Source of the DNA: Thermoanaerobaculia bacterium
GTDB lineage: Bacteria; Acidobacteriota; Thermoanaerobaculia; Gp7-AA8
Length of the DNA: 64,000 nucleotides
Assembly: GCA_041671505.1 (NCBI GenBank)
Contig: JBAZBK010000009.1
Location: 1 to 64,000 of the forward strand
Direction of reading: 5' to 3'
Shown: in pieces, positions 40,690 to 57,825 of the stretch
Layout of the letters: each line of letters starts with the position of its first letter
Numbering within the stretch: the first letter of the stretch is position 1
The notes under the pieces: model-generated
What the model saw: only the letters and a program-made list of their open reading frames with translations
What the model was told of the DNA's origin: nothing
Database searches by the model: none
Program-made: the position numbers and the translations under genes

Positions 40690-40790
40690 TTGTAACGGGA
40701 AACGGCAGGCGATAGGCGATAGGCGAGAGGCGAGAGCAGGCGGAGGAGAGGCAGGCCAAAGGCCAGAGGCCAGAGGCCAAAGCAGGCGGG
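40690..40790. repeat. Purine-rich tandem heptamer tract (GGCGATA, GGCGAGA and CAGAGGC units).
   Basis: ggcgataggcgataggcgagaggcgagagcaggcggaggagaggcaggccaaaggccagaggccagaggccaaagcaggcgg shows 7-nt periodicity. A partial inverted partner gcctctccttgcc lies at about 40838. Confidence 0.5.
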
Positions 40791-40895
40791 GAGGGGGATG
40801 TGGAGTGTCCCGCGAAGCGGGACGCAGCTTTCGCCTCTCCTTGCCGAAGCGAAGCTTCGGCGTTTCGAGCCTGGACCTGCTTCTCGGGGCGTCGT

Positions 40896-41225
40896 CTATT
40901 CGTGAATGGTGCTGTTCCCTGGCGTCACGTCGGAATTCAAACGCCGTTCGAGATCGAGCGCACCATGGAACACGCCGATGATCTCCACTCCGGCCGGGAC
41001 AATCCTGTAGACGATTCGGTAATGACCGTACAGTAGCATTCGAAGCTCCGAAGAGCTGGAGGTCTCGATTGGCGCTCCAGACTCCGGAAATCTTCGCAGC
41101 GATTCCGCGCGCTCGAGGACCCCTTCGATTACGCGCGCAGCGGCAACGGGATTCGATGCTGCGATGTAATCAAAGATGTCCCGAAGCCAGGAGCGCGCCT
41201 CGTCCGTCCAGACTACTTCGACCAT
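40896..41225 (-). CDS. Type II toxin-antitoxin system toxin, RelE/ParE family.
   Basis: ATG 41225 overlaps the antitoxin stop. The product is 109 aa and has a RelE/ParE-like pattern (RDIFDYIAASNPVAAARVIEGVLERAESLRRFPESGAP...YRIVYRIVPAGVEIIGVFHGALDL). Confidence 0.8.
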   Translation of the reverse strand: MVEVVWTDEARSWLRDIFDYIAASNPVAAARVIEGVLERAESLRRFPESGAPIETSSSSELRMLLYGHYRIVYRIVPAGVEIIGVFHGALDLERRLNSDVTPGNSTIHE

Positions 41226-41413
41226 GACCTCGCGTCGCGAACGACCTCTTCGTGGCTGACCACACGTCCCGCATCCGCATCGCGAAGGCCGCGATCGATC
41301 ATCCGGACAAACGCGATTTCCTGGAGGATCTCGTCGAACGAGCTGTCATCCGGGAGACGATCGATGATCTTTGCGATTCGCTCTTTTGCGGTCGGCGGAG
41401 GAGTCTTCGACAT
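41213..41413 (-). CDS. Type II toxin-antitoxin system antitoxin (small addiction-module component).
   Basis: Directly upstream of the toxin and overlapping it. The product is MSKTPPPTAKERIAKIIDRLPDDSSFDEILQEIAFVRMIDRGLRDADAGRVVSHEEVVRDARSWSK. The start is ambiguous, with an alternative start at 41440 in the track. Confidence 0.6.
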   Translation of the reverse strand: MSKTPPPTAKERIAKIIDRLPDDSSFDEILQEIAFVRMIDRGLRDADAGRVVSHEEVVRDARSWSK

Positions 41414-41465
41414 GCGATTGATGATACCTCGGGAGCGCACCGCCTGCCGAGGCGGGTCCTGTTCT

Positions 41466-41563
41466 CAATTCTCCATTCTCCAGTCGACATTCTTCATTTC
41501 GGTTCTCCAGCTCACTCGAAAACCGAAATGAAGAATGTCGAATGGAGAATGAAGAATGAAGAA
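41466..41563. repeat. Heptamer-repeat palindromic intergenic element E1 (GAATGAA family).
   Basis: The left arm is cattctccattctccagtcgacattcttcatttcgg and the right arm is ccgaaatgaagaatgtcgaatggagaatgaagaatgaagaa. The arms are reverse complements with 2-3 mismatches and share the core CCGAAATGAAGAATGTCGAATG with E2, E3 and E4. Confidence 0.75.
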
Positions 41564-41588
41564 CGGCGCGGGTCGCGTGACTGAGCGG

Positions 41589-42374
41589 TTATCTGCCCAG
41601 CCCCCACCGCCTCCGCACCTTCCTCTCCCACACCCCGAACACGAAGCGGTCGGTGACGAGGCCGAGGGTGATGATCACGACCATGACGGCGACGACCTGG
41701 CTCATGTCGTTGAGCTCGCGGCCCATCATGAGCAGGTGCCCCAGGCCGGGGAGCGTGTAGAGGAGCTCGCCCGCCATCAGCGAGCGCCAGGCGAACGACC
41801 AGCCTAACTTCATGCCGGTGACGATCGACGGCAGGGCGGCGGGGAAGATGACCGAGGTGTAGAGCTGGAGGCCGCGCGCGCCGAGGTTGCGCGCGGCGCG
41901 GGTGTAGATCGGCGGCGTGTTGTGGACGCCGTCCTGCGTCGCCTGCGCGATCGAGAGCACGGCGCCCATCACGACGACGAAGAGGATCGCGGTCTCGGAG
42001 AGACCGAACCAGAGGAGTGCGAGCGGCAGCCAGCAGATGCTCGGCAGCGCCTGGAGCCCCATCACGAGGAGCCCGAGCGTCTCGGCGAGCCAGCGGACGC
42101 GCGCGAGCAGCACGCCGATCACGAGGCCGATCACCGTCGCGATCGCGTAGCCGGCGACGAGGCGCTTGAGGCTCCCGGCGATGCCGAGCAGGAACGTGCG
42201 ATCTTCGAAGCCGAGCGTAAGGGCGCGCGCGACGCCGGTCGGCGACGGGAAGAGATACTCGGGCCAGAGCTTCATCCGGCTGAGCGCTTCCCACGCAGCG
42301 ACGATCGCGACGAAGAAGATGACGCGCCGCGCGATGTCGGCGGCGCTCAGGTCGAGCACGAGCTTCCCGTTCAT
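41589..42374 (-). CDS. ABC transporter permease (SsuC/TauC/NrtB-type, aliphatic sulfonate/nitrate family).
   Basis: ATG 42374 follows the upstream ATPase stop after 5 nt. It contains a BPD_transp_1-type EAA-like region and six transmembrane helices (LKRLVAGYAIATVIGLVIGVLLAR...). Confidence 0.85.
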   Translation of the reverse strand: MNGKLVLDLSAADIARRVIFFVAIVAAWEALSRMKLWPEYLFPSPTGVARALTLGFEDRTFLLGIAGSLKRLVAGYAIATVIGLVIGVLLARVRWLAETLGLLVMGLQALPSICWLPLALLWFGLSETAILFVVVMGAVLSIAQATQDGVHNTPPIYTRAARNLGARGLQLYTSVIFPAALPSIVTGMKLGWSFAWRSLMAGELLYTLPGLGHLLMMGRELNDMSQVVAVMVVIITLGLVTDRFVFGVWERKVRRRWGLGR

Positions 42375-42378
42375 GCGG

Positions 42379-43143
42379 TCAGCCGGCGGCAACGGTCACC
42401 TCGTCGACGAGCTTGACGTCGGCGGAGATCCGCCGCGCGTAGGCGTTGACCGCGGCGTCGTCGATCTGCCGCGGGCGGGGAAGGTCGATCGCATGCTCGG
42501 CGACGATCCGTCCCGGGCGCGGCGACATGACGAGGACGCGATCCCCGAGGACGACCGCCTCGCGGACGTTGTGGGTGATGAAGACGATCGTCTTGCGGGT
42601 CGAGAGCCAGATCTCCTGAAGCTCGGTGTGGAGGATGCCGCGCGTGATCGCGTCCAGCGCGCCGAACGGCTCGTCGAGCAGCAGCACGTCGGGCTCGACG
42701 GCGAGGGCGCGCGCGAGGCTGACGCGCTGACGCATACCGCCCGAGAGCTCGTGGACCGCGGCGTGCGCGAACGGTTCGAGGTGAACCATCCGGAGGAGCT
42801 GCATCGCGCGCGCCTCGCGGACGTCGGGCGCAAGCTTCTTCATCTTCAGCCCGAACTCGACGTTTGCGAGCACCGAGAGCCAGGGGAAGAGCGCGCCGTC
42901 CTGGAACATCAGCGCGCGTGACGGAGCGGTACCGGTGACCGCCTCTCCGTTGGCGAGGATCGCGCCTCCGCTCGGGAACTCGAGCCCCGCGAGCATGTAG
43001 AGCAGCGTCGACTTGCCGCACCCCGAGGGGCCGACGACGCAGACGAACTCGCCGTCGCGGATGTCGAGATCGATCCCTTCGAGAGCCGTTACGCTGCGGC
43101 TCCCTTCGAAGGTCTTCGACACGGAGCGCGCTTCGAGCCTCAC
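42379..43143 (-). CDS. ABC transporter ATP-binding protein (SsuB/TauB-type).
   Basis: GTG start at 43143 overlaps the upstream stop (GTGA). Walker A is GPSGCGKST, the signature is LSGGMRQRVSLARAL, and Walker B is LLLDEPFGALD. Confidence 0.85.
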   Translation of the reverse strand: MRLEARSVSKTFEGSRSVTALEGIDLDIRDGEFVCVVGPSGCGKSTLLYMLAGLEFPSGGAILANGEAVTGTAPSRALMFQDGALFPWLSVLANVEFGLKMKKLAPDVREARAMQLLRMVHLEPFAHAAVHELSGGMRQRVSLARALAVEPDVLLLDEPFGALDAITRGILHTELQEIWLSTRKTIVFITHNVREAVVLGDRVLVMSPRPGRIVAEHAIDLPRPRQIDDAAVNAYARRISADVKLVDEVTVAAG

Positions 43144-44165
43144 TTTGCGATCTCCGGGAGCGTCTTCGCGCGAAGGATCTCGTTCAGGAGCGTGAGGTCG
43201 TAGATTCCGTCGAGGTTAGGCTTCTCGCGAAGGAAACCAGCGGCGTGCGCGGCGTCGGCGCTCGCGACGAGCGACGGCGCGATCGGGTCCCACGTCGGGC
43301 GCATCCGCTCCCAGGCCTGCGCAAGAACGGCATCGGAGAGCTTCTTGCCGGTCAGTTTGCCGATCTCGTCGTTGAGGACGCGCTTCGCATCGTCGGGGTG
43401 CGCGAGCTCCCACTCGGTGACTGCGACGTGAGCCTCGAGCCACGTGCGGACGAGGTCGGGATGCTCGCGGAGGAACTTCGTGCTGACGATGACGTGCGCG
43501 GTGACGAAGTCGCCGCCGGGCCAGAGCGTACGCTCGTCGACAAGGATCACGCCGCCGCCGTCGACGACAAGGCGGCTGGCCCACGGCTCGGGCACCCACG
43601 CGCCGTCGATGTCACCGCGGCGGAAGAGGTCGAGGATCTGCGGGTTCTGCGTCGGGATGACGTCGACCGACCCGCCCTTGTCGCGCGACGCGAGTCCGTT
43701 CCTGCCGAGCCACGCGCGGAGCGCGACGTCCTGCGTGTTGCCGAGCTGCGGTGAGGCGAGTTTGCGGCCGGCGAGGTCGGCGGGCCCGGCGATGCCTGCG
43801 TCCTTCCGGACCACGAGCGCGGCGCCGCCGCTGGTCGCGCCGGCGACGACGCGGAGGGCCTCGCCCTTCGACTGCACGAAGCCGTTGATCGCCGGGTTCG
43901 GGCCGATGTAGGCGAGGTCGAGCTCGCCGCCGAAGAGGGCCTCGATGACCGAGGGCCCTGCGTTGAAAGTCGTCGGCTTGATGGTGACGCCGTCACCGAG
44001 CGCGCGCTGGAAGTCACCGCGCGCCAGGCCGACGAGCGCCTGCGAGTGGGTGATGTTGGGGAAGTAGCCGACGCGGATGGTCTGCTGGCCCGCCGGAGCG
44101 GGCGATTTGCCAGTGCAAGCGAGCAGAAGAGAGGCGGCGAGGGCCGCGGCCAGGAGGCGCTTCAT
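43140..44165 (-). CDS. ABC transporter periplasmic substrate-binding protein (SsuA/NMT1 family).
   Basis: ATG 44165. The lipoprotein signal is MKRLLAAALAASLLLACTG. Then IRVGYFPNITHSQALVGL, which is typical of the SsuA/TauA/NMT1 fold. A possible sigma70 promoter, TTGACA-17-ACCATT, sits just upstream. Confidence 0.8.
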   Translation of the reverse strand: MKRLLAAALAASLLLACTGKSPAPAGQQTIRVGYFPNITHSQALVGLARGDFQRALGDGVTIKPTTFNAGPSVIEALFGGELDLAYIGPNPAINGFVQSKGEALRVVAGATSGGAALVVRKDAGIAGPADLAGRKLASPQLGNTQDVALRAWLGRNGLASRDKGGSVDVIPTQNPQILDLFRRGDIDGAWVPEPWASRLVVDGGGVILVDERTLWPGGDFVTAHVIVSTKFLREHPDLVRTWLEAHVAVTEWELAHPDDAKRVLNDEIGKLTGKKLSDAVLAQAWERMRPTWDPIAPSLVASADAAHAAGFLREKPNLDGIYDLTLLNEILRAKTLPEIAK

Positions 44166-44279
44166 GGGGTAATGGTAGTTTGTTGATCGTATTTGTCAAG
44201 AATGAAGCGTGAGGGTGGGCTGGGATGCGATGCATAAGGCGAGGCCGGCAGTGAGAATGAGACGAGACAAGCGGCGAGA

Positions 44280-44410
44280 GAAGAGAAACGAGAGAAGAGA
44301 GAAGAGTTAAGAGAGAAGAGTTAAGAGTTGGGGGTTGGCGGGAGCGCACCTGAGAAGGAACGGGTGGCAAACTCTTAACTCTTCTCTCTCAACTCTTAAC
44401 TCTTCTCTTT
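44280..44410. repeat. Heptamer-repeat inverted repeat (GAGAAGA and GTTAAGA units) overlapping the 3' end of the Rrf2 gene.
   Basis: The left arm is gagaagagttaagagagaagagttaagagtt and the right arm is aactcttaactcttctctctcaactcttaactcttctc. The spacer of about 45 bp is gggggttggcgggagcgcacctgagaaggaacgggtggca. Confidence 0.7.
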
Positions 44411-44883
44411 TCTAGCTTCTCTCGTCGTTGCCTTTCCGCTCGCACTTCCACCCGATGCCGTGCCCGCGCCGCCCGCCCCTCCTCCGCCACCATGTCCGCG
44501 AGCGTCTTCGCCTCGAGCAGCTCGGCGACGACGTCGCGCACCTCGCGCATGAGGGCCGAGAACGCGGGCGACGCCTCGAGCGGCGTCGGCTGGTAGAAGT
44601 TCTTCGACGCGCTCCGGACCGGCGCGAGAGGGCCATCGACCGCGCGGACGACATCGGCGATCGAGATCTCCGACGCGTCCATCGCGAGCTTGAAGCCTCC
44701 GTCGGCGCCGCGCCGCGACACGAGAAAGCCGGCGCCCGTCAGCTTGCGGAGGATCTGCTGCAGGAACGGCGCCGGGATCGTGAAGCGCTCGGTGATGTCG
44801 TGCGTCTTGCACCACCCCTCGCTCGCCTCCGCGATCGCGAGAAGCGCAAGGCAGCTGTACTCGCTGGCGACCGTCATTCGCAT
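44389..44883 (-). CDS. Rrf2-family transcriptional regulator (IscR/CymR-like).
   Basis: ATG 44883 (MRMTVASEYSCLALLAIAEA). The winged-helix region reads HDITERFTIPAPFLQQILRKLTGAGFLVSRRGADGGFKL. An unusual basic C-terminal tail, RQRREKLEKRRVKS, is encoded inside the repeat element. Confidence 0.8.
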   Translation of the reverse strand: MRMTVASEYSCLALLAIAEASEGWCKTHDITERFTIPAPFLQQILRKLTGAGFLVSRRGADGGFKLAMDASEISIADVVRAVDGPLAPVRSASKNFYQPTPLEASPAFSALMREVRDVVAELLEAKTLADMVAEEGRAARARHRVEVRAERQRREKLEKRRVKS

Positions 44884-44960
44884 GGGGGCGATTGTGGGGG
44901 AGGGGGGGTGGGGGGTCAAGTTGACGGGAGATATGAATTGAATGGCACGTCAGCCCGAAA

Positions 44961-45081: not shown

Positions 45082-45128
45082 TGCCCGCGCGGCTACACAT
45101 GATCATCGTTACCGGCGAGAAACGTGCG

Positions 45129-46004
45129 TCACTTCACATGTCCCCGCACAAACCCCGCCACCCTCTCGAAGTACGCGTTCCCTCCAACCTCCGTCAGGTC
45201 GTTGTGGTCCGCGCCATGAATGACCAACATCTCCTTCGGCCCTTCGAGCGCGGCGTAGAGCTCCTTGCCGCAGGCGAAGGGGATGATCGTGTCGGCGTCG
45301 CCGTGGATGACGAGCACCGGCACGCGGGCGCGGTTGAGTGAGCGCGCGGTCGGCAGGGAGTTGCCGAGGAGGTAGCCCAGGGGCTTGCGGTAGGCGTTGT
45401 TCGCGACGCTTGCGGCCGAGGGGAACGAACTTTGGATCACGACACAGCGGACGCTGCGGTTCGCTGCGACGTCCGCGGCGTAGGCTCCGCCGAGCGATTC
45501 TCCGTAGAGCGCGATGCGTTCGGCCGGCGCGCCGAGCGTCGTCCGCGCGTAGTCGTAGACCGCGAGACCGTCGACGTAGAGCTTCGACTCGCTCGGAGAG
45601 CCTTCACTCTTTCCGTAGCCGCGGTAGTCGAAGAGGAGCACCGAGATTCCGCGCCGCTCGAGCTCTTCCGCGGTATCGGCGCGATGCGACAGGTTTCCTC
45701 CGTTGCCATGAAAGAAGATCAGCAGCGGCGCGTCCGCGTCCTTTGCGGAGAAGAGCCACGCGTGGAGCTTCAGGCCGTCAGGCGTCGTGATGATGTGCTC
45801 GGTCGGTCTGGGCTCGAGCGCGCTCACGTCCCAGTTTCCGGTGGGGTACTTGTCGGGAAAGAAGAGGGTGCTCCGCTTCATCACGTTGACGAGGGCCCAG
45901 AGGAGGGCGGTGACGACGAAGAGCCAGAGAAGAGCCTGCGCCGCGAGGCGGGGGGGGGGGGGGGGGGGGAGGGCGAGGAGGGCGAGCATCGGCGGTTGGA
46001 TCAT
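45129..46004 (-). CDS. Alpha/beta hydrolase (BAAT/hydrolase_4-like) with an N-terminal membrane anchor.
   Basis: ATG 46004 (MIQPPMLALLALPPPPPPRLAAQALLWLFVVTALLWALVNV), or alternatives at 45989 or 46142. Hallmarks are HGNGGN, the nucleophile elbow GESLGG, and C-terminal HGDADTIIP...HGADHND. Confidence 0.75.
   Translation of the reverse strand: MIQPPMLALLALPPPPPPRLAAQALLWLFVVTALLWALVNVMKRSTLFFPDKYPTGNWDVSALEPRPTEHIITTPDGLKLHAWLFSAKDADAPLLIFFHGNGGNLSHRADTAEELERRGISVLLFDYRGYGKSEGSPSESKLYVDGLAVYDYARTTLGAPAERIALYGESLGGAYAADVAANRSVRCVVIQSSFPSAASVANNAYRKPLGYLLGNSLPTARSLNRARVPVLVIHGDADTIIPFACGKELYAALEGPKEMLVIHGADHNDLTEVGGNAYFERVAGFVRGHVK
45951..45969. repeat. Homopolymeric G19 tract (poly-C on the coding strand) in the N-terminal coding region of the hydrolase.
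   Basis: Nineteen consecutive G residues are read directly from the sequence. On the minus strand they encode PPPPPP between the candidate start codons and the transmembrane helix. Confidence 0.9.
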
Positions 46005-46199: not shown

Positions 46200-46991
46200 C
46201 TACTTCTTGAACTTCGACTTCAGTCGCTCTCTCGCGATCTCGTCGATCTGCGCGAGCAGCGGTGAAATGAGCTCCCGCTGCTTCGCGACGAGCTGCTCGA
46301 TCCCCCCCTTCGCCAGGGCGATCATCGCGGTCATCTCCTCTTCGCTGAAGCTCCCTTTTTCGGCGGTGCCCTGCAGCTCGATGAACTTCATCGCGTCGGT
46401 CGCCACGATGTTCATGTCGACCTCGGCGGTCGAGTCTTCGCTGTAGTCGAGGTCGAGGTACGGCATGCCGTGATGGATGCCGACGGAGACCGCGGCAACC
46501 TGCGAGCGCACCGGCCAGTTCACCATCTTCTTGTTGAGGTAGATCTTCCCGAGCGCGAGGACGAGCGCGACGTAGCCGCCGGTGATCGACGCGCAACGCG
46601 TGCCGCCGTCGGCCTGGATCACGTCGCAATCGATGATCACCGTCCGCTCGCCGAGCGCCTCCTGGTCGATCGTGCCGCGAAGCGCGCGTCCGATCAGGCG
46701 CTGGATCTCGAGCGTCCGGCCTCCCTGCTTTCCTTTCGCGGCCTCGCGCTGATTCCGCTCATTCGTCGCGCGCGGGAGCATGCCGTACTCGGCGGTGACC
46801 CAGCCCTTGCCGCTGCGGAAAAGGAAAGGAGGAACCTTGTCCTCGATCGACGCGGTGCAGATGACGCGCGTGTCGCCCATTTCGATCAGGACCGAGCCTT
46901 CGGCGTGCTTGTTGAAGTCGGGGCGGATGACGACGGGCCGGAGCTCGTCCGTTGCGCGCCCGCCGGAGCGGGCCTTGGGGGAGGTTGTCAT
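46200..46991 (-). CDS. rph: Ribonuclease PH.
   Basis: ATG 46991. Motifs are [47 protein letters not shown] and [12 protein letters not shown]. The product is 263 aa. Confidence 0.9.
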
Positions 46992-47027
46992 GGGGACCTA
47001 TATAGATGAGATTGCGGTTGGTTGGAA

Positions 47028-47275
47028 GGGCGATTGCTGAATGCGGATTGCAGAATGCGGAATGCGGAGTGAAATGCGGAATTCGGATTGCGGAATGCGG
47101 AATGGGAATGCGGCCGGTGAACCGAAATGTCGAATGTTGAATGAGGAATGGAGAATGTAGAAAGGGGAGTACGGCAAGTCCGAGGTCAGTCTCCTTTCTT
47201 CATTCCTCATTCTTCATTCGACATTCGACATTTCGGTTCTGATTCTGCCTTTCATTCCGCATTCCCACTTCCGCA
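47028..47275. repeat. Composite heptamer-repeat palindromic element E4. Outer arms are GAATGCG x8 and CCGCATTC x3; inner arms are the CCGAAATGTCGAATG family.
   Basis: The left outer arm is gaatgcggattgcagaatgcggaatgcggagtgaaatgcggaattcggattgcggaatgcggaatgggaatgcgg. The inner IR pairs accgaaatgtcgaatgttgaatgaggaatggagaatg with cattcctcattcttcattcgacattcgacatttcggtt. The right outer arm abuts or overlaps the glgC stop. Confidence 0.75.
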
Positions 47276-48508
47276 TTACTCCAGAACCGTCCCCTTCGGA
47301 ATCACGACGATGCCCGACTCGGTGACGGTGAAGCGCTGGCGGTCGGCCTCGAGGTCGTAGCCGATCGTCATGCGGGGAGGGATCTTCACGCCCTTGTCGA
47401 TGATTGCGCGCCTGATCCTCGAGTGGCGGCCGATCTCGACGCCGTCCATCAGGATCGAGCCTTCGACGTCGGAGAACGAATGGATGCGCACCTTCGGCGA
47501 GAGGATCGACCGGTTGATGACGCCGCCCGAGATGATGACCCCCTCGGCGACGAGCGAGTTCGTCGCGCGGCCGATTCGCTGCGGCTCGTCGAAGACGAAC
47601 TTCGCCGGCGGCAGGTTCAGCCACGCCGAGCGGAGCGGCCACTGCGAGTTGTAGAGGTTGAACTTCGGCGAGATGGAGATCAGGTCCATCGACGCCGTGT
47701 AGTACGAGTCGATCGTTCCGACGTCGCGCCAGTAGCCGCGCGCCTCGGCTTCCTCGCCCGGAACGACGTTCGTCCCGAAGTCGTACGCCATCACCTTCGC
47801 CTCCCCGTACATCTGGGGAATGATCTCCTTGCCGAAGTCGTGCGCCGAGTCGCGCAGCGCGTTCGATTCGAGAACGTCGATGATCGCGCTCGCCTTGAAG
47901 ATGTAGTTGCCCATCGAGGCGAGCACCTCGTCGGGACGGCCGGGGATCGTCTTCGCCCCTTCCTTCGGCTTTTCGACGAAGCCGGTCACGCGGAACGAGT
48001 CGTCGATCTCGATGACGCCGAACTGGTTCGCCTCGGCGAGAGGAACGGGAATCGTCGCGATCGTCAGGTCGGCGTCGGTCTCCAGGTGGAAATCCATCAT
48101 CTGCGCGACGTCCATCTTGTAGATGTGGTCGCCGCCGAAGACGCAGACGTGCGTCGGCTTCTCGTCGAAGATCAGCTCGAGGTTCTGGTAGACGGCGTCG
48201 GCCGTGCCGCGGAACCAGAAGGGCCCCTTGCGCATCTGCGCGGGAACGACGTCGACGTACTGGCCGATCTCCGCGGAGAGGCGCCAGGTGCGCGAGATGT
48301 GCTCGATCAGCGAGTTCGACTTGAACTGTGTGAGGACCTTGACCTTGTAGAAGCCGGAGTTGACGAAGTTGTTGAGGACGAAGTCGATGATCCGGTAGCG
48401 GCCGCCAAACGGCACCGCGGGCTTCGCGCGATCGCGCGTGAGCGGATAGAGCCGCTCGCCCATTCCGCCGGCGAGCACCATCGTCAGCGTGTTCCGGTAT
48501 GTCTGCAT
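47276..48508 (-). CDS. glgC: Glucose-1-phosphate adenylyltransferase.
   Basis: ATG 48508 (MQTYRNTLTMVLAGGMGERLYPLTRDRAKPAVPFGGRYRIIDFVLNNFVNSG). The full-length GlgC pattern includes FRGTADAV and the left-handed beta-helix C-terminus. Confidence 0.9.
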   Translation of the reverse strand: MQTYRNTLTMVLAGGMGERLYPLTRDRAKPAVPFGGRYRIIDFVLNNFVNSGFYKVKVLTQFKSNSLIEHISRTWRLSAEIGQYVDVVPAQMRKGPFWFRGTADAVYQNLELIFDEKPTHVCVFGGDHIYKMDVAQMMDFHLETDADLTIATIPVPLAEANQFGVIEIDDSFRVTGFVEKPKEGAKTIPGRPDEVLASMGNYIFKASAIIDVLESNALRDSAHDFGKEIIPQMYGEAKVMAYDFGTNVVPGEEAEARGYWRDVGTIDSYYTASMDLISISPKFNLYNSQWPLRSAWLNLPPAKFVFDEPQRIGRATNSLVAEGVIISGGVINRSILSPKVRIHSFSDVEGSILMDGVEIGRHSRIRRAIIDKGVKIPPRMTIGYDLEADRQRFTVTESGIVVIPKGTVLE

Positions 48509-51616: not shown

Positions 51617-52900
51617 ATGAAGGCGATCCCGCACATCTCCGCGCTCAGCGCCACCGTCACCGCCCCTGCCTCAAAATCGCTGACCGCTCGCGCGCTTCTC
51701 CTTGCGTCGATGACCGAGGGGGAGACGACGATCACGAATGCGCTCGACTGCGACGACGCGCGCTACATGTACGAGGCGCTGCGGAAGATGGGCTTCGCGG
51801 TGCGCGGCTCGTTCAAGGAGGGCATCACGATCGGGCCGCGCCTCTCGATGACCGCGAACGAGCTCGAGCTCTCGGTCGGCAACGCCGGCACCGCGATGCG
51901 CTTCCTCACCGGCTACCTGAACTTCACGCCTGGGCGGTTCCTGTTGACGGGTGACAAGCGGATGCTCGAGCGCCCGATCGGCGACCTCGTCGAATCGCTC
52001 GTCTCGATTGGTGGAGAGGTCGAATACGCCGATCCGCTCCGCGAAGGCTTCCCTCCGCTCCGCATCCGCGGCAAGAAGGTGCGGGGCGGCTTCGAGGTCG
52101 CCGTCACGGGCGAGACGTCGAGCCAGTTCGTGTCGGCGCTGATGATGGCGGGCGCGGGGCTTCCCGACGGCCTCACGCTGCGGGCCGCGTCGCTCTCGTC
52201 GCGGCCCTACGTCGAGCTGACGCGCGACATCCTCCAGGAGTTCGGCGCGAGCGTGGTCGAGGTCTCGCCTAACGTCTGGAAAGTGCACGCCGCGCGGCTG
52301 GAGAAGGCGGGCTACGAGGTCGAGGGCGACTGGTCGAGCGCCTCGTACTGGCTCGCGGCCGGCGCGATCCTCGGCGGGCCGATGACCGTCGAGGGAATCC
52401 GCCGCGACTCGGGGCAGGGCGACCGCAGGTTCGTCGACATCCTCGTCGCGATGGGCTGCCGCGCCGACTGGTCGGAGCGCTCGGTGAGGCTCTCGGGCCC
52501 GGAGCGTCTCGGGGGAGGCAGCTTCGACTGCAACGCGACTCCCGACATCGTGCCGACGCTCGCCGCGATCGCGCCGTTCGCGACCGCGCCGGTCGAGATC
52601 ACCGGCATCGGGCACCTTCGCGTGAAGGAGTCGGACCGGATCGACTCGGTGGCGGGCGAGCTCGCGAAGCTCGGCGCGCGCGTCGAGACGGGACCCGACT
52701 GGATGCGTGTCACGCCTGGCCTCGGCGAAGGGCCGGTGACGATCGACCCGCACGACGACCACCGCCTCGCGATGTGCTTCGCGATCGCAGGGCTCCGCCG
52801 CGGCGGCGTCTCGATCGACAACGAACACGTCGTCGCGAAGTCGTATCCCCGATTCTGGCGAACGCTCGACGAGGTCACGGCCGCGGCGCGGCCGAATTGA
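51617..52900 (+). CDS. aroA: 3-phosphoshikimate 1-carboxyvinyltransferase (EPSP synthase).
   Basis: ATG 51617. Motifs are KSLTARALLLASMTEGETTI, LGNAGTAMRFL, GDWSSASYWL and RVKESDRI. The product is 427 aa. Confidence 0.9.
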   Translation: MKAIPHISALSATVTAPASKSLTARALLLASMTEGETTITNALDCDDARYMYEALRKMGFAVRGSFKEGITIGPRLSMTANELELSVGNAGTAMRFLTGYLNFTPGRFLLTGDKRMLERPIGDLVESLVSIGGEVEYADPLREGFPPLRIRGKKVRGGFEVAVTGETSSQFVSALMMAGAGLPDGLTLRAASLSSRPYVELTRDILQEFGASVVEVSPNVWKVHAARLEKAGYEVEGDWSSASYWLAAGAILGGPMTVEGIRRDSGQGDRRFVDILVAMGCRADWSERSVRLSGPERLGGGSFDCNATPDIVPTLAAIAPFATAPVEITGIGHLRVKESDRIDSVAGELAKLGARVETGPDWMRVTPGLGEGPVTIDPHDDHRLAMCFAIAGLRRGGVSIDNEHVVAKSYPRFWRTLDEVTAAARPN

Positions 52901-52925
52901 AAATTGAGAATTGAAGTTTGAGAGA
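52894..52925. repeat. GAATTGA-type heptamer arm (E8) overlapping the aroA stop.
   Basis: gaattgaaaattgagaattgaagtttgagag. Its inverted partner is cccaattctcaattcc at 54084..54110 (E9). Confidence 0.5.
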
Positions 52926-52937
52926 TGACGGAGGCCG

Positions 52938-53111: not shown

Positions 53112-53184
53112 GCGCGATCACAGACCGTTGTTGTGGCTCCGGATCGCGCGGCCCGGGCACCGTTTGCGGCGCGCAGCGCCGGGA

Positions 53185-53334
53185 CATCGGTAGCCCCCGC
53201 CTTCAGGCGGGGGTTGGCGCCGCGAGGGACGAACCGCGCCGCTTCAGCGGCGCGAGCATCGTCGGCGGTGGCGCCGCTCAAGCGGCGCCCTGACGTGGCT
53301 TCCGGTCGTAGCCCTGAAGCCGGGGGCTACCGAT
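53185..53334. repeat. MITE-like element, GGTAGCCCC family copy 2.
   Basis: The left end is catcggtagcccccgccttcaggcgggggttggc and the right end is gtagccctgaagccgggggctaccgatg. Internal hairpins are gcgccgcttcagcggcgc and ggcgccgctcaagcggcgcc. The architecture matches 39138..39277. Confidence 0.6.
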
Positions 53335-53430
53335 GTGTCGCCGCGCCGCGGCGAAGCGTCGGCAGTCGTGCCGGGGTCCCGAGGGTAGGACGCGAGGCGG
53401 TTGTTCCGCCCCGGTCCTATACTCGTCCCC

Positions 53431-53910: not shown

Positions 53911-54083
53911 AATCGGCCCCGTCGGGGCGCACGGCTCGATGTGGCGCAGGCACTCCTGCCTGCGCGCCGCCGAAGGCGACCGGCCCCTCCAATCGCGAGC
54001 CGCGACAGATGGCGGCGCTTCGTCCCGCCCCGCGGGACAGGCAGGAGTGCCTGCGCCACACGCACGAGCTCGCGCGCGCTCTC

Positions 54084-54110
54084 GATTCTGAATTCCCAAT
54101 TCTCAATTCC
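54084..54110. repeat. GAATTGA-type heptamer arm (E9) immediately upstream of the GMC oxidoreductase start.
   Basis: tctgaattcccaattctcaattcc lies 18 nt before ATG 54128. Confidence 0.5.
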
Positions 54111-54127
54111 GCCTCATAATCGCCCTC

Positions 54128-55735
54128 ATGTCAGAGACGCGCGACTACGTGATCATCGGCTCCGGCTTCGGCGGGAGCGTCTCGGCGATGCGGCTCGTCG
54201 AGAAGGGCTACTCGGTGCTCGTGCTCGAGCGGGGGCGCCGCTTCCGCGACGAGGACTTCGCGAAGACGACCTGGCGCGCGCGCCGCTACCTCTGGGCTCC
54301 CTGGTTCCGCTGCTTCGGCATCATGCAGATCTCTCCCTTCCGGAACGTCTTCGCGCTCCACGGCGCGGGCGTCGGCGGCGGCAGCCTCGGTTACGCGAAC
54401 GTCCTGATGAAGCCCGACGACAAGCTTTTCGCCGCGCCGGCGTGGAAGGAGCTGCAGGACTGGAAGCGCGAGCTCGACCCGCACTACGAGACGGCGAGGC
54501 GGATGTTAGGCGTAACCCCCAACCCCCGAATGAGCGCGGCCGACGACGTGCTGAAGAACGTCGCGCAGGCGATGGGGGTCGGCGCGACGTTCAAGCCAAC
54601 CGAGGTCGGCGCGTTCTTCGGCGAGCCGGGGAAGGAAGGGGAGGAAGTCCCCGATCCCTACTTCGGCGGCGAAGGCCCCGCGCGAAAAGGGTGCATCCAC
54701 TGCGGCGGCTGCATGGTCGGCTGCCGGCACAACGCGAAGAACACCCTGGTGAAGAACTACCTCTGGTTCGCGGAGAAGCGCGGCGCGGAGGTGAGGCCCG
54801 ATTGCATCGTGCGCGACGTGCGTCCCCTCCCCGCCGGCCAGGCCGACGGTGCGAGGTACGAGGTGGTCTATCGGCGGACGAGCGGGATCCTCCGTCGCGC
54901 GACGCGCGTCGTCCGCGGGCGCAACGTCGTCGTCTCGGCCGGCGCGTTAGGGACGATGCGGCTCCTCTTCCGCTGTCGCGACGTCACGCGCTCGCTCCCG
55001 AAGATCTCGAATCGGCTCGGCGACCTCGTACGCACGAACAGCGAGGCGCTGCTGGGCGGCGTCGCGCGGAGCCGCGACGTCGACTACTCGAAGGGAATCG
55101 CGATCACGTCGATCTTCCAGCCCGATCCCGTCACGAACGTCGAGCCGGTCCGCTATTCGGCCGGCTCGTCGCTGATGCGCTTCCTCGCGGGGCCGCTCAT
55201 CGACGGCGGGAACATCCCGATCCGGCTCGCCAAGTCGCTCTGGAACATCGTCACCCGGCCGATCGACTTCGCGCGCACGCACCTTCTCCCCGGCTGGGCG
55301 GAGCGGACGACGATCCTTCTCGTGATGCAGACCGAGGACAATCGCCTTCGCATGCGCCTCGGGCGGAGCCTCTTCACCGCGTTCATGAAGAACCTCGTCT
55401 CGTTCCCCGACGAGCAGTCGAGCGTGCCGCCAAAGGTCGAGATCGGACACGAGGTGACGAAGCGCTACTGCGAAGCAACGGGATCGATCCCGCTCGGCTC
55501 GGTCAACGAGGGTCTCCTCAACATTCCGCTCACCGCGCACATCCTTGGCGGCGTTCCCTTCGGCACGAACGACGCCGACGGCGTGATCAGTCTCGACTGC
55601 CAGCTCCACAACTACCCGGGGATCTACATCGTCGACGGCTCGATCATGCCCGCGAATCCCGGTGTGAACCCGAGCCTCACGATCACCGCCCTCGCGGAGT
55701 ACGCGATGAGCCGGGTGGCGGTGAAGGCGAATTGA
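54128..55735 (+). CDS. GMC-family FAD-dependent oxidoreductase (cholesterol-oxidase/choline-dehydrogenase-like).
   Basis: ATG 54128. The Rossmann FAD motif is DYVIIGSGFGGSVSAMRL, with a GMC C-terminal region (...IYIVDGSIMPANPGVNPSLTITALAEYA). The product is 535 aa. Confidence 0.85.
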   Translation: MSETRDYVIIGSGFGGSVSAMRLVEKGYSVLVLERGRRFRDEDFAKTTWRARRYLWAPWFRCFGIMQISPFRNVFALHGAGVGGGSLGYANVLMKPDDKLFAAPAWKELQDWKRELDPHYETARRMLGVTPNPRMSAADDVLKNVAQAMGVGATFKPTEVGAFFGEPGKEGEEVPDPYFGGEGPARKGCIHCGGCMVGCRHNAKNTLVKNYLWFAEKRGAEVRPDCIVRDVRPLPAGQADGARYEVVYRRTSGILRRATRVVRGRNVVVSAGALGTMRLLFRCRDVTRSLPKISNRLGDLVRTNSEALLGGVARSRDVDYSKGIAITSIFQPDPVTNVEPVRYSAGSSLMRFLAGPLIDGGNIPIRLAKSLWNIVTRPIDFARTHLLPGWAERTTILLVMQTEDNRLRMRLGRSLFTAFMKNLVSFPDEQSSVPPKVEIGHEVTKRYCEATGSIPLGSVNEGLLNIPLTAHILGGVPFGTNDADGVISLDCQLHNYPGIYIVDGSIMPANPGVNPSLTITALAEYAMSRVAVKAN

Positions 55736-55745
55736 GAATTACTAA
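55728..55745. repeat. GAATTGAGAATT heptamer arm (E10) containing the GMC stop codon.
   Basis: gcgaattgagaattacta, with the stop TGA at 55733-55735 inside the repeat. Confidence 0.45.
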
Positions 55746-57076
55746 CTATCCTGCCTCGCCCACTCGTCCCGCGTCAGGTTCTCGACGCCGCTGTCGGTGA
55801 CGATCACGTCGTCCTCGATGCGGATTCCGCCGTACTTGTGGAACGCGGCGACCTTCTCCCACGCGACGTCCTTCGCGTGCGGTCCCTTCTTCACCTCGTC
55901 CAGGAGCGAGTCGATGAAGTAGATGCCCGGCTCGATCGTGAAGGCCATGTCCTTCTCGACGATGCGCGTCAGGCGGAGGTAGGGATGTCCCTCGGGTTTC
56001 GGGATCGTCGTGCCGCTCGCGTCGGCGGAGAAGCCGGCGACGTCGTGGACCTGAAGGCCGATGAGATGCCCGATGCCGTGCGGGAAGAAGGCGGAGGAGA
56101 TCCGCTTCTCGACCGCGGCCTCGGGCGAGCAGTTGATGAGGCCGAAGTCGGAGAGGATCTTCGCCGTCTGGTGGTGCGTCGCGAGGTGGATCGACTTGTA
56201 GTCGACGCCCGGCTTCACCATCGCGACGAGGCGGAGCTGCATCGCGTCGACCGCGGCGATGAGCGCGGCGAACTCGTCCTCGCGCTGCGCCCAGGTGCGG
56301 GTGATGTCGCATGCGTAGCCGTTGACCTGCGCGCCGGCGTCGATGAGGAACGAGTGACGCTCGGCCTCGCCCAGCGGCTGGCGCTCGGTGTCCATGTAAT
56401 GGAGCACCGCGGCGTTGCGGTTCATCGCGATGATGTTGCCGTAGGGGAGCTCGTGCTCCATGTGTCCCGAGGCGCTGAGGTACTCGAGATGGATCTCGAA
56501 CTCGGAGGCGCCCGCGGCGAAGGCATCCGCGGCGGCGATGTGTGCGCGGACTCCCTTCACGGTCGCAGCGCGCATGCACGCAGCCTCGTACGGGGTTTTC
56601 CTCGAGCGATCGAAGTGAAGCGGATTGAGGAGCGCCGGAGGATTCGCCGCCTCGAACGCCCAGTCGTCGAAGATCGGATCCCACTCGCCGACGAAGGCGC
56701 AGCGCCCGCTCGTAGGCATGTGCTGCTTCGCCTCTTCGGGCGTCGCGATCGACACGATGTCGAACTGCCCGACCCAGTAGCCCTCGGGCTCGCCTGCCAC
56801 CTTGTGCCAGTAGTCGACCGGCCGGTTGTAGACGAACTTCGGCCGCTCGCCCGGCGTGTAGACGACGAAGCAGAAGGGATTGTCGACGACCGGCGCCCAG
56901 TACTTCACGTGCGGGTTCGCCTTGAACGGATAGTCCATGTCGTCGAGGAAGATCGTGTGCGGATTTCCTGCGAAGGCGACGAAGTGGTCGAACCCGCTGG
57001 CCGCGAGAGCCTTGTCGTGGCGGGCCTTCAGAGTTGCGACGTGCGCGGGGTAGAGCGAAGCGAGCGTGTTCGTCAT
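55742..57076 (-). CDS. pepQ: Xaa-Pro dipeptidase (prolidase, M24B).
   Basis: ATG 57076. The product is 444 aa and is collinear with E. coli PepQ (LASLY...H...TL, FLDD.PYPFK.NP, YW..V, DAGA..NGYA.D.TRTW, HGIGH.LGLQVHDV, IEPG.YFI.SLL, GGIRIED.V). Confidence 0.85.
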   Translation of the reverse strand: MTNTLASLYPAHVATLKARHDKALAASGFDHFVAFAGNPHTIFLDDMDYPFKANPHVKYWAPVVDNPFCFVVYTPGERPKFVYNRPVDYWHKVAGEPEGYWVGQFDIVSIATPEEAKQHMPTSGRCAFVGEWDPIFDDWAFEAANPPALLNPLHFDRSRKTPYEAACMRAATVKGVRAHIAAADAFAAGASEFEIHLEYLSASGHMEHELPYGNIIAMNRNAAVLHYMDTERQPLGEAERHSFLIDAGAQVNGYACDITRTWAQREDEFAALIAAVDAMQLRLVAMVKPGVDYKSIHLATHHQTAKILSDFGLINCSPEAAVEKRISSAFFPHGIGHLIGLQVHDVAGFSADASGTTIPKPEGHPYLRLTRIVEKDMAFTIEPGIYFIDSLLDEVKKGPHAKDVAWEKVAAFHKYGGIRIEDDVIVTDSGVENLTRDEWARQDS

Positions 57077-57090
57077 GGTCGGACGAGCAT

Positions 57091-57128
57091 AGAAGAAGAA
57101 TCGAGAATTGAGAATTGAGAATTGAGAG
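57091..57128. repeat. GAATTGA x4 heptamer arm (E11), the left outer arm of the composite element upstream of pepQ.
   Basis: gaagaagaatcgagaattgagaattgagaattgagag. Its inverted partner E12 is at 57447..57474. Confidence 0.7.
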
Positions 57129-57207
57129 AGGGCAGGGTTGGTAGGGGGGGCGGGAAGCGCCGATTCCGGCGCTAGAGGGGTTTCCCTTTCATCGCGGAGC
57201 GTTCGGA

Positions 57208-57374
57208 TTGTCATCCCGACGAACGATCCCGCGGAGCGGGAGCGAGAGGAGGGATCTCGCAGGCTGGTACAGTCGAGGTTCGTCGCGAACTCGGTGGCTC
57301 GTGGCACGGGAGTACTAGCCTGCGAGGTCCCTCCTCCTTCCCCCGCTTCGCGGGGTCAGTCGTCGGGACGACAA
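57208..57374. repeat. Long imperfect palindrome with arms of about 62 bp and a 41-bp centre, nested between E11 and E12. A possible structured RNA or MITE.
   Basis: The left arm is ttgtcatcccgacgaacgatcccgcggagcgggagcgagaggagggatctcgcaggctggtac. The right arm gtactagcctgcgaggtccctcctccttcccccgcttcgcggggtcagtcgtcgggacgacaa is its reverse complement with about 8 mismatches. Confidence 0.65.
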
Positions 57375-57446
57375 CTCCGTTGGACGTCGCCGTTACGAAT
57401 CAGTGAAGGAAAGCTCGGGGCGTTCGATACGAACGCGTCTCCACGT

Positions 57447-57474
57447 CTCTCAATCCCTAATTCTCAACTCTCAC
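57447..57474. repeat. Heptamer arm E12 (CTCTCAAT...TTCTCAACTCTC), the right outer arm. It overlaps the stop of the 57457..57825 gene.
   Basis: ctctcaatccctaattctcaactctcac is the reverse complement of the E11 GAGAATTGAG repeats. Confidence 0.6.
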
Positions 57475-57825
57475 CTCGCCGCCCGCGGCGGCGCAGCGAG
57501 CGCGCTCCTCGCAGGCCGCGATCTGCATCTCGAGCTCGATGACGAGCTTGTCGAGGCGGCAGGCGACGTCGGTCGCGATCGGGAGGATGAGCTTCGACGC
57601 GTCGAACTCGGCGAAGAAGCGCGAGCGGATGCCGTCGAACCAGAGCTTTTCGAGAAATGCGCGAAATCGCGCGACGAGCGCGGCATCGGGCTGCATGGCG
57701 GGCCAGAGCTCCGCCGGGGCGAGATTGCCGAGGGCAACTTCGTCGAAACGGGCAGCCGCGTCGCGAAGGTCGCGGGCGAGCTCTCGTGCGGTGGCGATGT
57801 GATGGCGGCGGTGCTGGGAGGTCAT
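57457..57825 (-). CDS. Hypothetical protein (122 aa).
   Basis: ATG 57825 (MTSQHRRHHIATARELARDLRDAAARFDEVALGNLAPAELWPAMQPDAALVARFRAFLEKLWFDGIRSRFFAEFDASKL...). It is GC3-rich with a balanced composition. The overlapping 57464..57985 ORF in another frame is Arg/Pro-rich and less plausible. Confidence 0.45.
   Translation of the reverse strand: MTSQHRRHHIATARELARDLRDAAARFDEVALGNLAPAELWPAMQPDAALVARFRAFLEKLWFDGIRSRFFAEFDASKLILPIATDVACRLDKLVIELEMQIAACEERARCAAAGGEVRVEN

Follow-up and report, generated by a model that had tools for sequence, protein, structure and literature searches.

The locus and its intergenic elements

The 64,000-nt stretch of DNA analysed here, referred to below as the window (positions 1 to 64,000, forward strand, of contig JBAZBK010000009.1, assembly GCA_041671505.1), stems from a soil-type bacterium of the Thermoanaerobaculia (Acidobacteriota), in agreement with its RNase PH homologues, and has a GC content of 62-72 %. 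Between 40 and 58 kb, where they are unusually dense, tandem heptanucleotide arrays are present in most gaps separating the genes, nearly all of them arranged as mirror-image pairs able to fold back into long hairpins. These heptamer foldbacks recur at the same gene junctions in related genomes, where purifying selection acts on their arms but not on their centres, and they may serve as hairpins at transcript boundaries.

The genes of this region, assigned from a crude gene map of the window together with Pfam matches on orthologues, are in order an HlyD-like gene, a ParE toxin gene and its antitoxin, an ABC transporter, Rrf2, a hydrolase, RNase PH (rph), a GlmU-like NTP-transferase, a DnaJ-like gene, a Metallophos (LpxH-like) gene, a metallo-beta-lactamase-fold gene (MBL), AroA, a Zn-ribbon gene, a cupin gene, a GMC oxidoreductase and PepP. 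The 17-kb block that bears the elements consists of co-directional genes, almost all of which have at their 3' end a run of 3-12 heptamer units, usually purine-rich, and then, beyond a variable centre, its reverse complement. All elements lie in, or overlap, a gap between genes, and none is fully intragenic within the window. They are listed here with left and right arms separated by a slash; no strand is assigned unless a plus is given, and percentages refer to the complementarity of the arms.

40704-40793, direct arrays of AGGCGAT (3.9 copies, 40707-40733) and AGGCCAA (4.3 copies, 40753-40782), together a 46-nt unit present twice (Tandem Repeats Finder, period scan)
41461-41510/41515-41564, E1, GAATGNN-type hairpin, 50-nt arms, 88 %, 4-nt gap
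44272-44329/44370-44427, GAGAAGA/GTTAAGA-type hairpin, 58-nt arms, 84 %, folding z-score about -10
44960-45008/45034-45082, E2, AACCGAAATG(NNGAATG)n hairpin, 49-nt arms, 94 %, z-score -12/-15
46038-46080/46114-46156, E3, same AACCGAAATG(NNGAATG)n family as E2, 43-nt arms, 95 %, downstream of rph
47035-47113 (about 11.7 units) and 47242-47277, E4 outer arms, GAATGCG arrays (Tandem Repeats Finder, inverted-repeat search)
47119-47168/47190-47239, E4 inner hairpin, CCGAAATG(NNGAATG)n, 50-nt arms, 88 %
49672-49703/49800-49831, E5, AGTTGTT (4.3 copies) and CTAACAA (4.3 copies), 32-nt arms, 97 %, centre of about 95-96 nt
50582-50625/50635-50678, E6, loosely periodic GAANNNN hairpin, 44-nt arms, 84 %
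51471-51498/51562-51589 (element to 51594), E7, GAAAATT and AATTTTC, 28-nt arms, 96 % (100 % over 24 nt), AT-rich centre
52880-52914, plus, E8, left arm of GAATTGA type that holds the stop codon of aroA
54079-54113, plus, E9, right arm of TCAATTC type, 14 nt before the ATG of the GMC oxidoreductase gene
55729-55742, plus, E10, half-site of two GAATTGA units holding the GMC stop codon
57097-57129, plus, E11, (GAATTGA)x4.4 array adjoining the pepP start, pairs with E12
57446-57472, plus, E12, right arm, overlapping the end of a gene of 122 aa

The direct arrays at 40704-40793 sit between the start of the HlyD-like gene and the end of the ParE toxin gene; they have no inverted partner and their complementarity does not go beyond that of shuffled sequences. 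E1 is built inside-out, with the pyrimidine arm first and the CCGAAATG termini pointing toward the loop, an arrangement that is also seen in its orthologue in the relative L121, and it folds with a minimum free energy of -67/-75 kcal/mol (z-score -9.7/-13.6). The hairpin at 44272-44427 overlaps the end of the Rrf2 gene, and downstream of it, at 44199-44172 on the minus strand, is a promoter-like site that would serve the ABC operon. In E4, the core of the outer arms (47049-47082/47242-47275; 34 nt, 79 % complementary) encloses the inner hairpin. E5 ends 2 nt before the ATG of the Metallophos gene, while the left arm of E7 holds the stop codon of the MBL gene. Pairing over larger distances is seen for E8 and E9, which are complementary at 27 of 35 positions across 1.16 kb, and for E11 and E12 (23 of 27); in both cases this exceeds all 300 shuffles.

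Ten of the loci are inverted pairs, i.e. convergent arrays of one unit lying close together, as found by an inverted-repeat search. The initial annotation of this DNA had attributed one common architecture to at least twelve loci, which holds for these ten but neither for the direct repeats at 40704-40793 nor for the half-site E10. It had also described the centre as often being a GC hairpin or a terminator. This is clearly the case only for E2, where a GC stem and a T-run form a terminator-like site on the minus (sense) strand (45027-45006), and for E6, where GGGGCTGAGCAGCCCC stands between an A-run and a T-run; it is less clear for E3 and E4. E6, E4 and E3 each end in a top of the type GAAAGGGG-loop-CCCCTTTC, which is terminator-like but falls below the T-run rule of our terminator scan. 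A GC core is absent from E5 and E7.

Tandem Repeats Finder reports about 30 period-7 rows between 40707 and 57127, with 2.6-11.7 copies each, the only other period-7 rows in the window being two weak GC-rich ones at 19257 and 20314. In our own scan of periods 4-12, period-7 runs numbered 0, 7 and 0 below 40 kb, at 40-58 kb and beyond 58 kb, respectively, against 0-1 in the window at periods 5, 6 and 8-12. The same scan in the relatives gave 29 runs at period 7 and 0-3 at periods 5, 6 and 8-12, the count of 40 at period 4 having been obtained under a laxer threshold for that period. Three consecutive GAATKNN units are matched 39 times in the window and the core pattern 8 times, whereas shuffles lead one to expect 0 for each. 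Of the 15 gaps at 40-58 kb, 12 are occupied, compared with 0 of the 16 gaps of at least 100 nt in the first 39 kb (Fisher p = 3e-6), which bears out the initial observations that elements occur in almost every gap of the 17-kb block and that none occur in the first 40 kb.

The sequence of the unit is not constant. At least six unrelated units (GAATGNN, GAATTGA, GAAAATT, AGTTGTT, GAGAAGA and AGGCGAT) are present within 17 kb, and the types cluster by neighbourhood, with GAATGNN at 41-47 kb and GAATTGA/GAAAATT at 51-57 kb, as they do in the relative L128. A 22-mer core that had initially been assigned to four loci is found in E1, E2 and E3, in five exact copies plus one with 1 mismatch, but E4 carries a variant, CCGAAATGTCGAATGTTGAATG. 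E1 to E4 share 22-24 nt, as judged within the 64-kb window only; these four are neighbours, and they are old, being orthologous in L121 and L128. At gathering thresholds Rfam identifies no known RNA family in these sequences, and at E <= 1 the only matches are sub-threshold eukaryotic miRNA-precursor models, i.e. generic long hairpins.

Conservation and turnover in related genomes

A look-up of the exact RNase PH sequence of the window gave no record, and relatives were reached through its homologues. Those that we compared are independent assemblies from ENA, NCBI, JGI and Logan. Their contigs are ordered by RNase PH identity to the window: 97 % for L127, 94 % for L121-L124, 93 % for L125 and L128, 78 % for L129, 74 % for L372 and 69 % for L371. 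L121 and L128 share the 17-kb block in synteny and have period-7 hairpins at the matching junctions. The occurrence of heptamer hairpins at the same junctions in assemblies from all four sources, identical across three samples of one species, excludes that they are an assembly artefact of a metagenome-assembled genome, for which the probability is negligible. The contig does contain one likely sequencing or assembly artefact, a once-interrupted stretch of 24 G at 45950-45973, which falls at the 5' end of the alpha/beta-hydrolase gene and leaves the start of that gene uncertain.

The four-fold degenerate sites of rph, aroA, the Metallophos gene and dnaJ are 52-65 % identical between the window, L121 and L128. 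By comparison, the inner arms of E4, located between the NTP-transferase gene and rph, are 91-98 % identical to those of the L121 and L128 orthologues, although the loop is only 25-64 % identical. The arms of E5 match those in L128 at 26/26 and 30/32 positions (94-100 %), while the centre is 51 % identical, and the (TCTCAAT)4 array before pepP (E11) is, together with its flank, nearly identical in the window, L121 and L128. The difference in conservation between arms and loops or centres is significant (binomial p about 4e-10). Since the arms are 91-100 % identical where four-fold sites are at 52-65 % and loops or centres at 25-64 %, strong purifying selection acts on the arms and not on the centres.

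The elements also change. In L128, E3 has kept its GAATG cores while its NN positions have changed, and its right arm shows an indel of one unit (7 nt); the outer arms of E4 differ widely in copy number among the window, L128 and L121. Whole units are also replaced. The junction between the Metallophos gene and dnaJ carries AGTTGTT in the window and L128, AGTGCTG in L121 and GGACGTG in L129. That between the MBL and Metallophos genes is occupied by E6 in the window, GAATTGA (four copies) in L128, GACAAAT in L129 and GGGTTGT in L372, and has no element in L121, in which the two genes are 4 nt apart; copies of an E6-like family are present in two other gaps of L125. In L371, the string of genes from aroA to dnaJ and the junction between the NTP-transferase gene and rph have spacings of 2-34 nt, and no array was found in 20.8 kb. 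Tight, array-free junctions of this kind in deeper relatives indicate that the hairpins were gained.

The unit sequence is thus unconstrained across loci, whole units are inserted or deleted, and hairpins have appeared at formerly tight junctions, all of which would be expected if the foldbacks were a functionless by-product. Under such a scenario, polymerase slippage favouring 7-nt units, as reportedly proposed by Mrazek et al. for long simple-sequence repeats, would seed arrays beside existing hairpins, template switching would turn them into palindromes, and they would persist wherever they are harmless. We consider this improbable, because arms that are so much better conserved than four-fold sites and adjacent loops are not neutral. 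Nor are the arrays hypermutable: they are identical in L121-L124, four samples of one species that are 99-100 % identical to each other, in which only GC-rich repeats of the repetitive extragenic palindromic (REP) type differ. The arrays are therefore not hypervariable, and the idea that they constitute contingency loci was rejected on the same grounds.

Position, polarity and folding

In the window and four relatives, strictly defined arrays occur in 22 of 47 co-directional gaps and in 0 of 14 divergent or convergent ones (p = 0.001, the loci being orthologous and hence not independent). Among 71 orientable hairpins from many taxa in the loci listed, the upstream stop codon is followed by the hairpin at a median distance of 5 nt (interquartile range 1-17.5), and the stop codons of aroA, the MBL gene and the GMC gene are themselves contained in arrays. 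We also examined the possibility that the heptamers provide stop codons in all frames after genes; it was rejected, since 24 % of 95 5' arms would do so compared with 33 % expected from permutations of unit positions.

The two arms are not equivalent. Among 120 strictly defined hairpins in all loci listed, 94 have a purine-rich 5' arm (>0.6) and 3 a pyrimidine-rich one (<0.4). This polarity is not imposed by the seed pattern of the searches, because the inside-out arrangement is equally findable, and it is that of a bidirectional terminator with its A-tract, stem and U-tract. The placement after stop codons, the absence from divergent gaps and the 94:3 polarity all need more than slippage, and therefore again speak against a mere by-product.

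Each pair can form a hairpin of 24-60 bp on either strand, and every one of them folds as a long hairpin on both strands, with z-scores of -5 to -15. That both strands fold equally well, with no signal for the RNA strand, agrees with passive accumulation.

Distribution across phyla

The matches listed from a scan for four consecutive GAATGNN units, restricted to one genome per species, come from many phyla. The 120 loci listed contain at least 264 period-7 arrays, at least 75 of which have an inverted partner within 500 nt, and clear hairpins, some of them nested, are found among the matches listed in several classes of Acidobacteriota and in Gemmatimonadota, Verrucomicrobiota, Planctomycetota and Nitrospira. 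Confinement to the window, which the initial annotation had named as a reason to abandon its proposal, is thus contradicted by heptamer hairpins in the relatives and in many phyla. In a metagenome scan for CCGAAATGNNGAATGNNGAATG, the matches listed comprise 63 outward hairpins, 1 inside-out hairpin and 57 arrays without a partner, on contigs with a GC content of 0.38-0.72. Only 2 of 61 partner arms among them end in CATTTCGG, which makes the AACCGAAATG...CATTTCGGTT termini of E1-E4 a lineage-private family. The candidate role of the 22-mer core as the terminus of a widespread transposable element of the miniature inverted-repeat kind (MITE) was rejected accordingly: many GAATGNN hairpins start with CCGAAATG, but their partners, in these matches, rarely end in CATTTCGG. 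All of these sets were seeded with GAATG-type patterns and carry no information on the frequency of other units.

Viral contigs, which were surveyed for arrays only, contain 325 period-7 arrays in 1.1 Mb. One of these contigs, L359 (14 kb, a putative phage from the IMG/VR collection of uncultivated virus genomes), has 14 direct GAATGCA arrays, each located at or right after a stop codon. Where inspected (1100-2300), clusters of GTAGGGGCGG...-type REP palindromes come after them, and inverted partner arrays were not detected. Spread across phyla and onto viral contigs would fit the by-product account. The same is true of the over-representation of heptamers among long repeats in many bacteria, for which Mrazek et al. 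2007 is summarised in PMC4679880 and PMC4692102.

Centres, inserted cassettes and the question of mobility

At the junction between pepP and the GMC gene, L121 has a perfect, loopless heptamer palindrome of 38 bp, GAATTGAGAATTGGGAATTCCCAATTCTCAATTC. In L128 the two arms are split by a ribbon-helix-helix (RHH)-PIN toxin-antitoxin cassette, and in the window only a half-arm is present (E10). The 1.16-kb interval between E8 and E9 contains a Zn-ribbon open reading frame, the cupin gene and REP-type palindromes, all of them absent from L121 (252-nt gap) and L128 (9-nt gap). Between E11 and E12 lies an unrelated, non-heptamer inverted repeat (57208-57374; 63-nt arms, 83 % complementary), and E4 encloses a second heptamer hairpin. 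The centres thus evolve freely and accept other hairpins, REPs and small gene cassettes. Palindrome centres are known to be unstable, and quick turnover and insertion at the centres of long palindromes fit this instability.

These features bring to mind non-autonomous mobile or selfish foldback elements, similar to MITEs, REPs or foldback transposons, that invade gene junctions. The heptamer arrays would then be terminal inverted repeats and the centres a variable cargo. Eukaryotic foldback (FB) transposons do have long inverted arms composed of short tandem repeats, with a variable and sometimes gene-carrying centre between them, an architecture that matches the one seen here. Multi-copy families with common termini (E1-E4 with AACCGAAATG..., and the E6 family with its copies in two further gaps of L125), presence/absence polymorphism (E6 missing in L121, tight junctions in L371), cassettes between arms (Zn-ribbon and cupin in E8-E9, RHH-PIN in L128) and the arrays on viral contigs all point in the same direction. 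FB elements, however, are eukaryotic, generate target-site duplications and in some cases encode a transposase. No target-site duplications were seen flanking E2, E3, the inner hairpin of E4 or E6 when the sequence was read directly, and neither a transposase nor a REP-associated tyrosine transposase is evident in the 17-kb block, although no search was aimed at either. Moreover, the units differ among loci and their types are clustered by neighbourhood rather than scattered, and the shared termini CCGAAATG/CATTTCGG are found in only 2 of the 61 cross-phylum hairpins among the matches listed. Copies that are orthologous across species with near-saturated synonymous sites must be old rather than recently mobile. 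We therefore think it quite unlikely that the elements are mobile, and the initial proposal of a structural class, as opposed to one MITE copied around, is supported by units that differ between loci and between orthologues, by the missing target-site duplications and by lineage-private CCGAAATG termini.

Other repeats and cassettes share the same junctions. An inverted repeat related to that at 57208-57374 lies inside the heptamer element between aroA and the MBL gene of L128 (5330-5470). Small toxin-antitoxin cassettes are present at heptamer-bearing junctions in the form of ParE and its antitoxin (window, 40896-41413) and of RHH-PIN (L128, 1651-2276; L129, 3469-4139), and are missing from the corresponding junctions of other relatives. 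A second repeat class comprises GC-rich nested palindromes with GGTAGCCCC(C/G)G...CTTCAG heads, which have the appearance of the GTAG-tagged REP type. They are located at 39122-39292, 53167-53353 and 58079-58296 in the window and at 5287-5583 and 10793-11250 in L121, often beside or inside heptamer elements, and it is at these sites that 99 %-identical strains differ; their Rfam matches to Acido-Lenti-1 are weak and sub-threshold (24 and 21 bits for a gathering score of 37). Another GC-rich palindrome, GTGGCGCAGGCACTCCTGCCTG...CAGGCAGGAGTGCCTGCGCCAC, lies at 53941-54060 between the cupin gene and E9, and one half (GGTCGCCTTCGGCG.CGCGCAGGCAGGAGTGCCTGCGCCACA) is retained in L121, whose gap between aroA and the GMC gene is far shorter.

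Relation to known repeats

It is secure that the elements are heptanucleotide simple-sequence-repeat foldbacks, of the same broad class as the STRR sequences of cyanobacteria (short tandemly repeated repetitive) and the GGGAATC inverted pairs of Xanthomonas. The STRR heptanucleotide sequences were reportedly first described by Mazel et al. in 1990, a paper cited in PMC4692102. Like the elements of the window, they consist of tandem 7-nt units, of which there are several per genome, and are intergenic and capable of forming hairpins between co-transcribed genes. The window indeed shows what defines this class, namely head-to-tail 7-nt units in at least 3 copies, an excess of period 7, an intergenic location and length changes by whole units. 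It differs in belonging to another phylum with high GC, in that nearly all arrays are mirror-image pairs, often nested, and in that the elements are purine-first with arms demonstrably conserved across species. For the STRR hairpins between hupS and hupL an effect on transcript stability has been proposed (PMC2670836).

In Xanthomonas, GGGAATC arrays form 70-75 convergent inverted pairs per genome, and whether an array is single or paired is kept between species (Rehm et al. 2015, PMC4692102). These arrays are likewise intergenic, lie close together on opposite strands, preserve their type while their length varies and even have a unit that contains GAAT. However, Xanthomonas uses one G-rich unit genome-wide, which has been read as G-quadruplex-forming, whereas the window has many units of another kind, with nesting and with unit replacement at orthologous sites; GAATGAA, GAATTGA, AGTTGTT and GAGAAGA contain no G-runs from which a G-quadruplex could be built.

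A functional precedent, established by experiment, comes from Haemophilus, in which an (ATCTTTC)n array upstream of hmw1A is transcribed and forms a long hairpin that RNase III cleaves; the repeat number changes only if transcription, hairpin and RNase III are present (PMC12721329). In hmw1A/hmw2A, as in the window, a heptamer array is the arm of a long hairpin, and its pyrimidine-rich unit resembles TTCATTC and TTCTCAA. The hmw hairpin nevertheless has only one repetitive arm, which pairs with a G-rich tract by means of G.U pairs, and it is located in the 5'-UTR of a hypervariable contingency locus. In the window both arms are arrays, which are Watson-Crick symmetric, lie at the 3' ends of genes and are stable among close strains; no phase variation within a species of the hmw kind is seen in the four samples L121-L124. 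Given the STRR sequences, the Xanthomonas pairs (PMC4692102), the hupS-hupL hairpins (PMC2670836) and the Haemophilus hairpin (PMC12721329), the initial statement that no element of this design has been described can no longer be upheld. Our full-text literature searches yielded no description of such hairpins in Acidobacteriota, Gemmatimonadota, Verrucomicrobiota, Planctomycetota or Nitrospira.

TAACTGA direct repeats have been reported from Beggiatoaceae, Cyanobacteria and Bacteroidetes, with S1, Csp or CsrA proposed as binders (MacGregor 2015, PMC4679880). They resemble the arrays of the window as intergenic heptamers with a patchy spread across phyla and 7-nt-step indels between strains, but they are direct, lie just upstream of start codons and include one indirect repeat in 170 sets. 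According to the summary in PMC4679880, Mrazek et al. 2007 identified the heptamer as the long simple repeat that is most abundant in many genomes, and suggested a 7-nt contact of the polymerase.

The elements also resemble REPs and bacterial interspersed mosaic elements, enterobacterial repetitive intergenic consensus sequences, other intergenic palindromes and bidirectional intrinsic terminators, all of which are stable, co-transcribed hairpins in co-directional gaps with an A-tract/stem/U-tract polarity and are known to stabilise the upstream mRNA or to terminate transcription. REPs, however, are GC-rich, 20-40 bp long and without internal periodicity and have a GTAG or CGTC head, and terminator stems measure 5-20 bp, as opposed to 25-60 bp here. 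The heptamer arms, which are AT-rich, 24-60 nt long and without a GTAG head, do not fit the REP description, although the separate GGTAGCCCC... class of the window does. AGTTGTT/CTAACAA was also considered as a core site of integron attC elements (GTTRRRY/RYYYAAC) and dropped, since it does not fit the consensus.

Possible function

Terminators, insulators and RNA-level elements, all suggested in the initial annotation, are reasonable candidates. The most likely role, which we infer only tentatively, is that of hairpins at transcript boundaries, operating as terminators or attenuators, as protection of 3' ends and/or as RNase III sites. The hairpins would be transcribed together with the upstream gene and would act as double-stranded RNA at the transcript boundary. 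Read-through could thereby be attenuated or terminated and the upstream 3' end protected, and/or cleavage by RNase III could uncouple the neighbouring cistrons; the Haemophilus hmw heptamer hairpin and the REP-type intercistronic stem-loops would be the models for such a process. The arrays would grow and shrink by 7-nt slippage, and palindrome-templated copying (intrastrand template switching) might keep both arms mirror-symmetric. We favour this role because the elements lie right after stop codons in co-directional gaps, have a polarity like that of A-tracts and U-tracts and in some cases possess terminator-like cores. The conservation of arms but not loops and the Haemophilus and REP precedents are further reasons.

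A number of points weigh against it. Each functional step is reasoned from sequence and from analogy. Mismatches compatible with G.U pairing number 49 on the sense and 42 on the antisense strand, which amounts to no sense-strand enrichment and gives no support to selection for pairing in the sense RNA, and for E4 the antisense strand gives the better fold. The pairing thus has the look of a DNA-level palindrome and not of an RNA-selected stem. A consensus terminator scan found 9 sites compared with 12.2 in shuffles, only one of them being inside an element (the E2 centre, sense strand). About 16 gaps in the first 39 kb, and whole operons in deeper relatives, do without such hairpins. In addition, a 45-bp stem alone should tolerate single mismatches, so the 91-100 % identity of the arms hints at a sequence-specific reader outside the model, and the length of the unit, 7 nt, is not accounted for by a transcript-boundary role.

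It is this conservation beyond the needs of pairing, together with the number seven, that keeps alive a model in which the arrays are binding sites for a protein with a footprint of 7 nt or 7 bp. The protein could be of the ribbon-helix-helix type and coat double-stranded heptads, with nucleoid organisation, insulation or repression as the outcome. Alternatively, cold-shock-domain chaperones could occupy the pyrimidine-rich arm in its single-stranded state, one to each heptamer, and thereby control hairpin formation (antitermination, antagonism of RNase III). A strict 7-nt register calls for a molecular ruler, the GAATG cores are invariant while NN positions vary, the lack of a sense-strand G.U bias is compatible with recognition of double-stranded DNA, and the purine-first polarity (94 vs 3) fits a factor acting on the pyrimidine arm, which emerges last. 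There are precedents for both versions. According to work cited in PMC4679880, CspB reportedly binds heptamers 1:1 and prefers TTCTTTT-like sites, and CspA antagonises RNase III on a long hairpin (discussed in PMC12721329). The RHH protein omega/ParB of pSM19035 binds at least 4 contiguous 7-bp heptads, direct or inverted (PMC9499535). The initial argument that a 7-bp period speaks against protein iterons is thus countered by omega and, as far as the account in PMC4679880 goes, by CspB. Runs of at least 4 contiguous 7-bp units, direct and inverted, are also found in the window.

The likeness to omega does not extend further. Omega recognises one consensus heptad, said to be WATCACW, at a few sites per plasmid that are promoters or centromeres and not gene ends, and has a cognate RHH protein. 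The window has no single consensus: six or more unrelated units are present within 17 kb, and units are replaced at orthologous sites. Such diversity of units within one genome and the unit swaps between orthologous sites make a sequence-specific binder of double-stranded DNA unlikely. Furthermore, E5 has its T-rich arm at the 5' side, no candidate gene for the protein is present in the window, and iterons need neither mirror symmetry nor hairpin potential. On balance we judge a protein with a seven-nucleotide footprint unlikely, in either version.

The transcript-boundary role and the idea of a ruler can be combined. Heptamer foldbacks might be a cross-phylum, selection-maintained transcript-boundary system in which a factor with a footprint of seven nucleotides uses the 7-nt register as its ruler. 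Such a factor would most plausibly be cold-shock-domain chaperones that occupy the late-emerging pyrimidine arm, one per unit, and decide whether the hairpin forms and hence whether read-through or an RNase III cut ensues. The combination is a long shot. If true, it would provide a function for STRR and other heptamer repeats, unexplained since 1990, and would account for the purine-first polarity, the start after stop codons and the conservation of arms above the synonymous rate.

Several features are, within the literature searched, not reported for heptamer repeats: purifying selection on arms but not loops, a near-invariant polarity and a post-stop start in at least 5 phyla, and a dated gain at junctions that are tight in deeper relatives, with the unit replaced and the architecture kept. 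Taken together, the evidence for selection, polarity and gain argues that the structures are used and not merely tolerated. The sequence comparisons reveal no new kind of system, but they are unusually clean evidence that selection maintains heptamer foldbacks. In practical terms, the hairpins mark sub-boundaries of operons, with centres that are insertion sites for small cassettes, and their recognition should be of value for the annotation of many genomes of uncultured Acidobacteriota, Verrucomicrobiota and Planctomycetota.

Further features of the window

No tRNA or tmRNA was found in the window. Called genes have a GC content at third codon positions of 0.76-0.84 within the first 33 kb (1-33000) and of 0.85-0.96 later (35000-64000). 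The part with the lower values is also the array-free part and may have a different history, e.g. a more recent acquisition.

Directly before the ATG of rph (at 46991), the sequence TCTATATAGGTSCCC (46992-47006, minus strand) is invariant in the window and in L121, L125, L127 and L128. Some 7 nt from the ATG it has a TATATA box of the -10 kind, and it contains no Shine-Dalgarno sequence. This suggests that the rph mRNA is leaderless or nearly so and would start just after the E4 hairpin.

Near-perfect palindromes of yet another family are located at 33337-33404 and 33547-33620. One has 36-nt arms that are 100 % complementary (GTTTGGGGGTCACAGCTAAAATATAAACTTTAGGCC), the other 31-nt arms, and a related GGGGGTCACACCGAAAGTTGAAAGTTTTCAC family is present in L125 (15134-15389).

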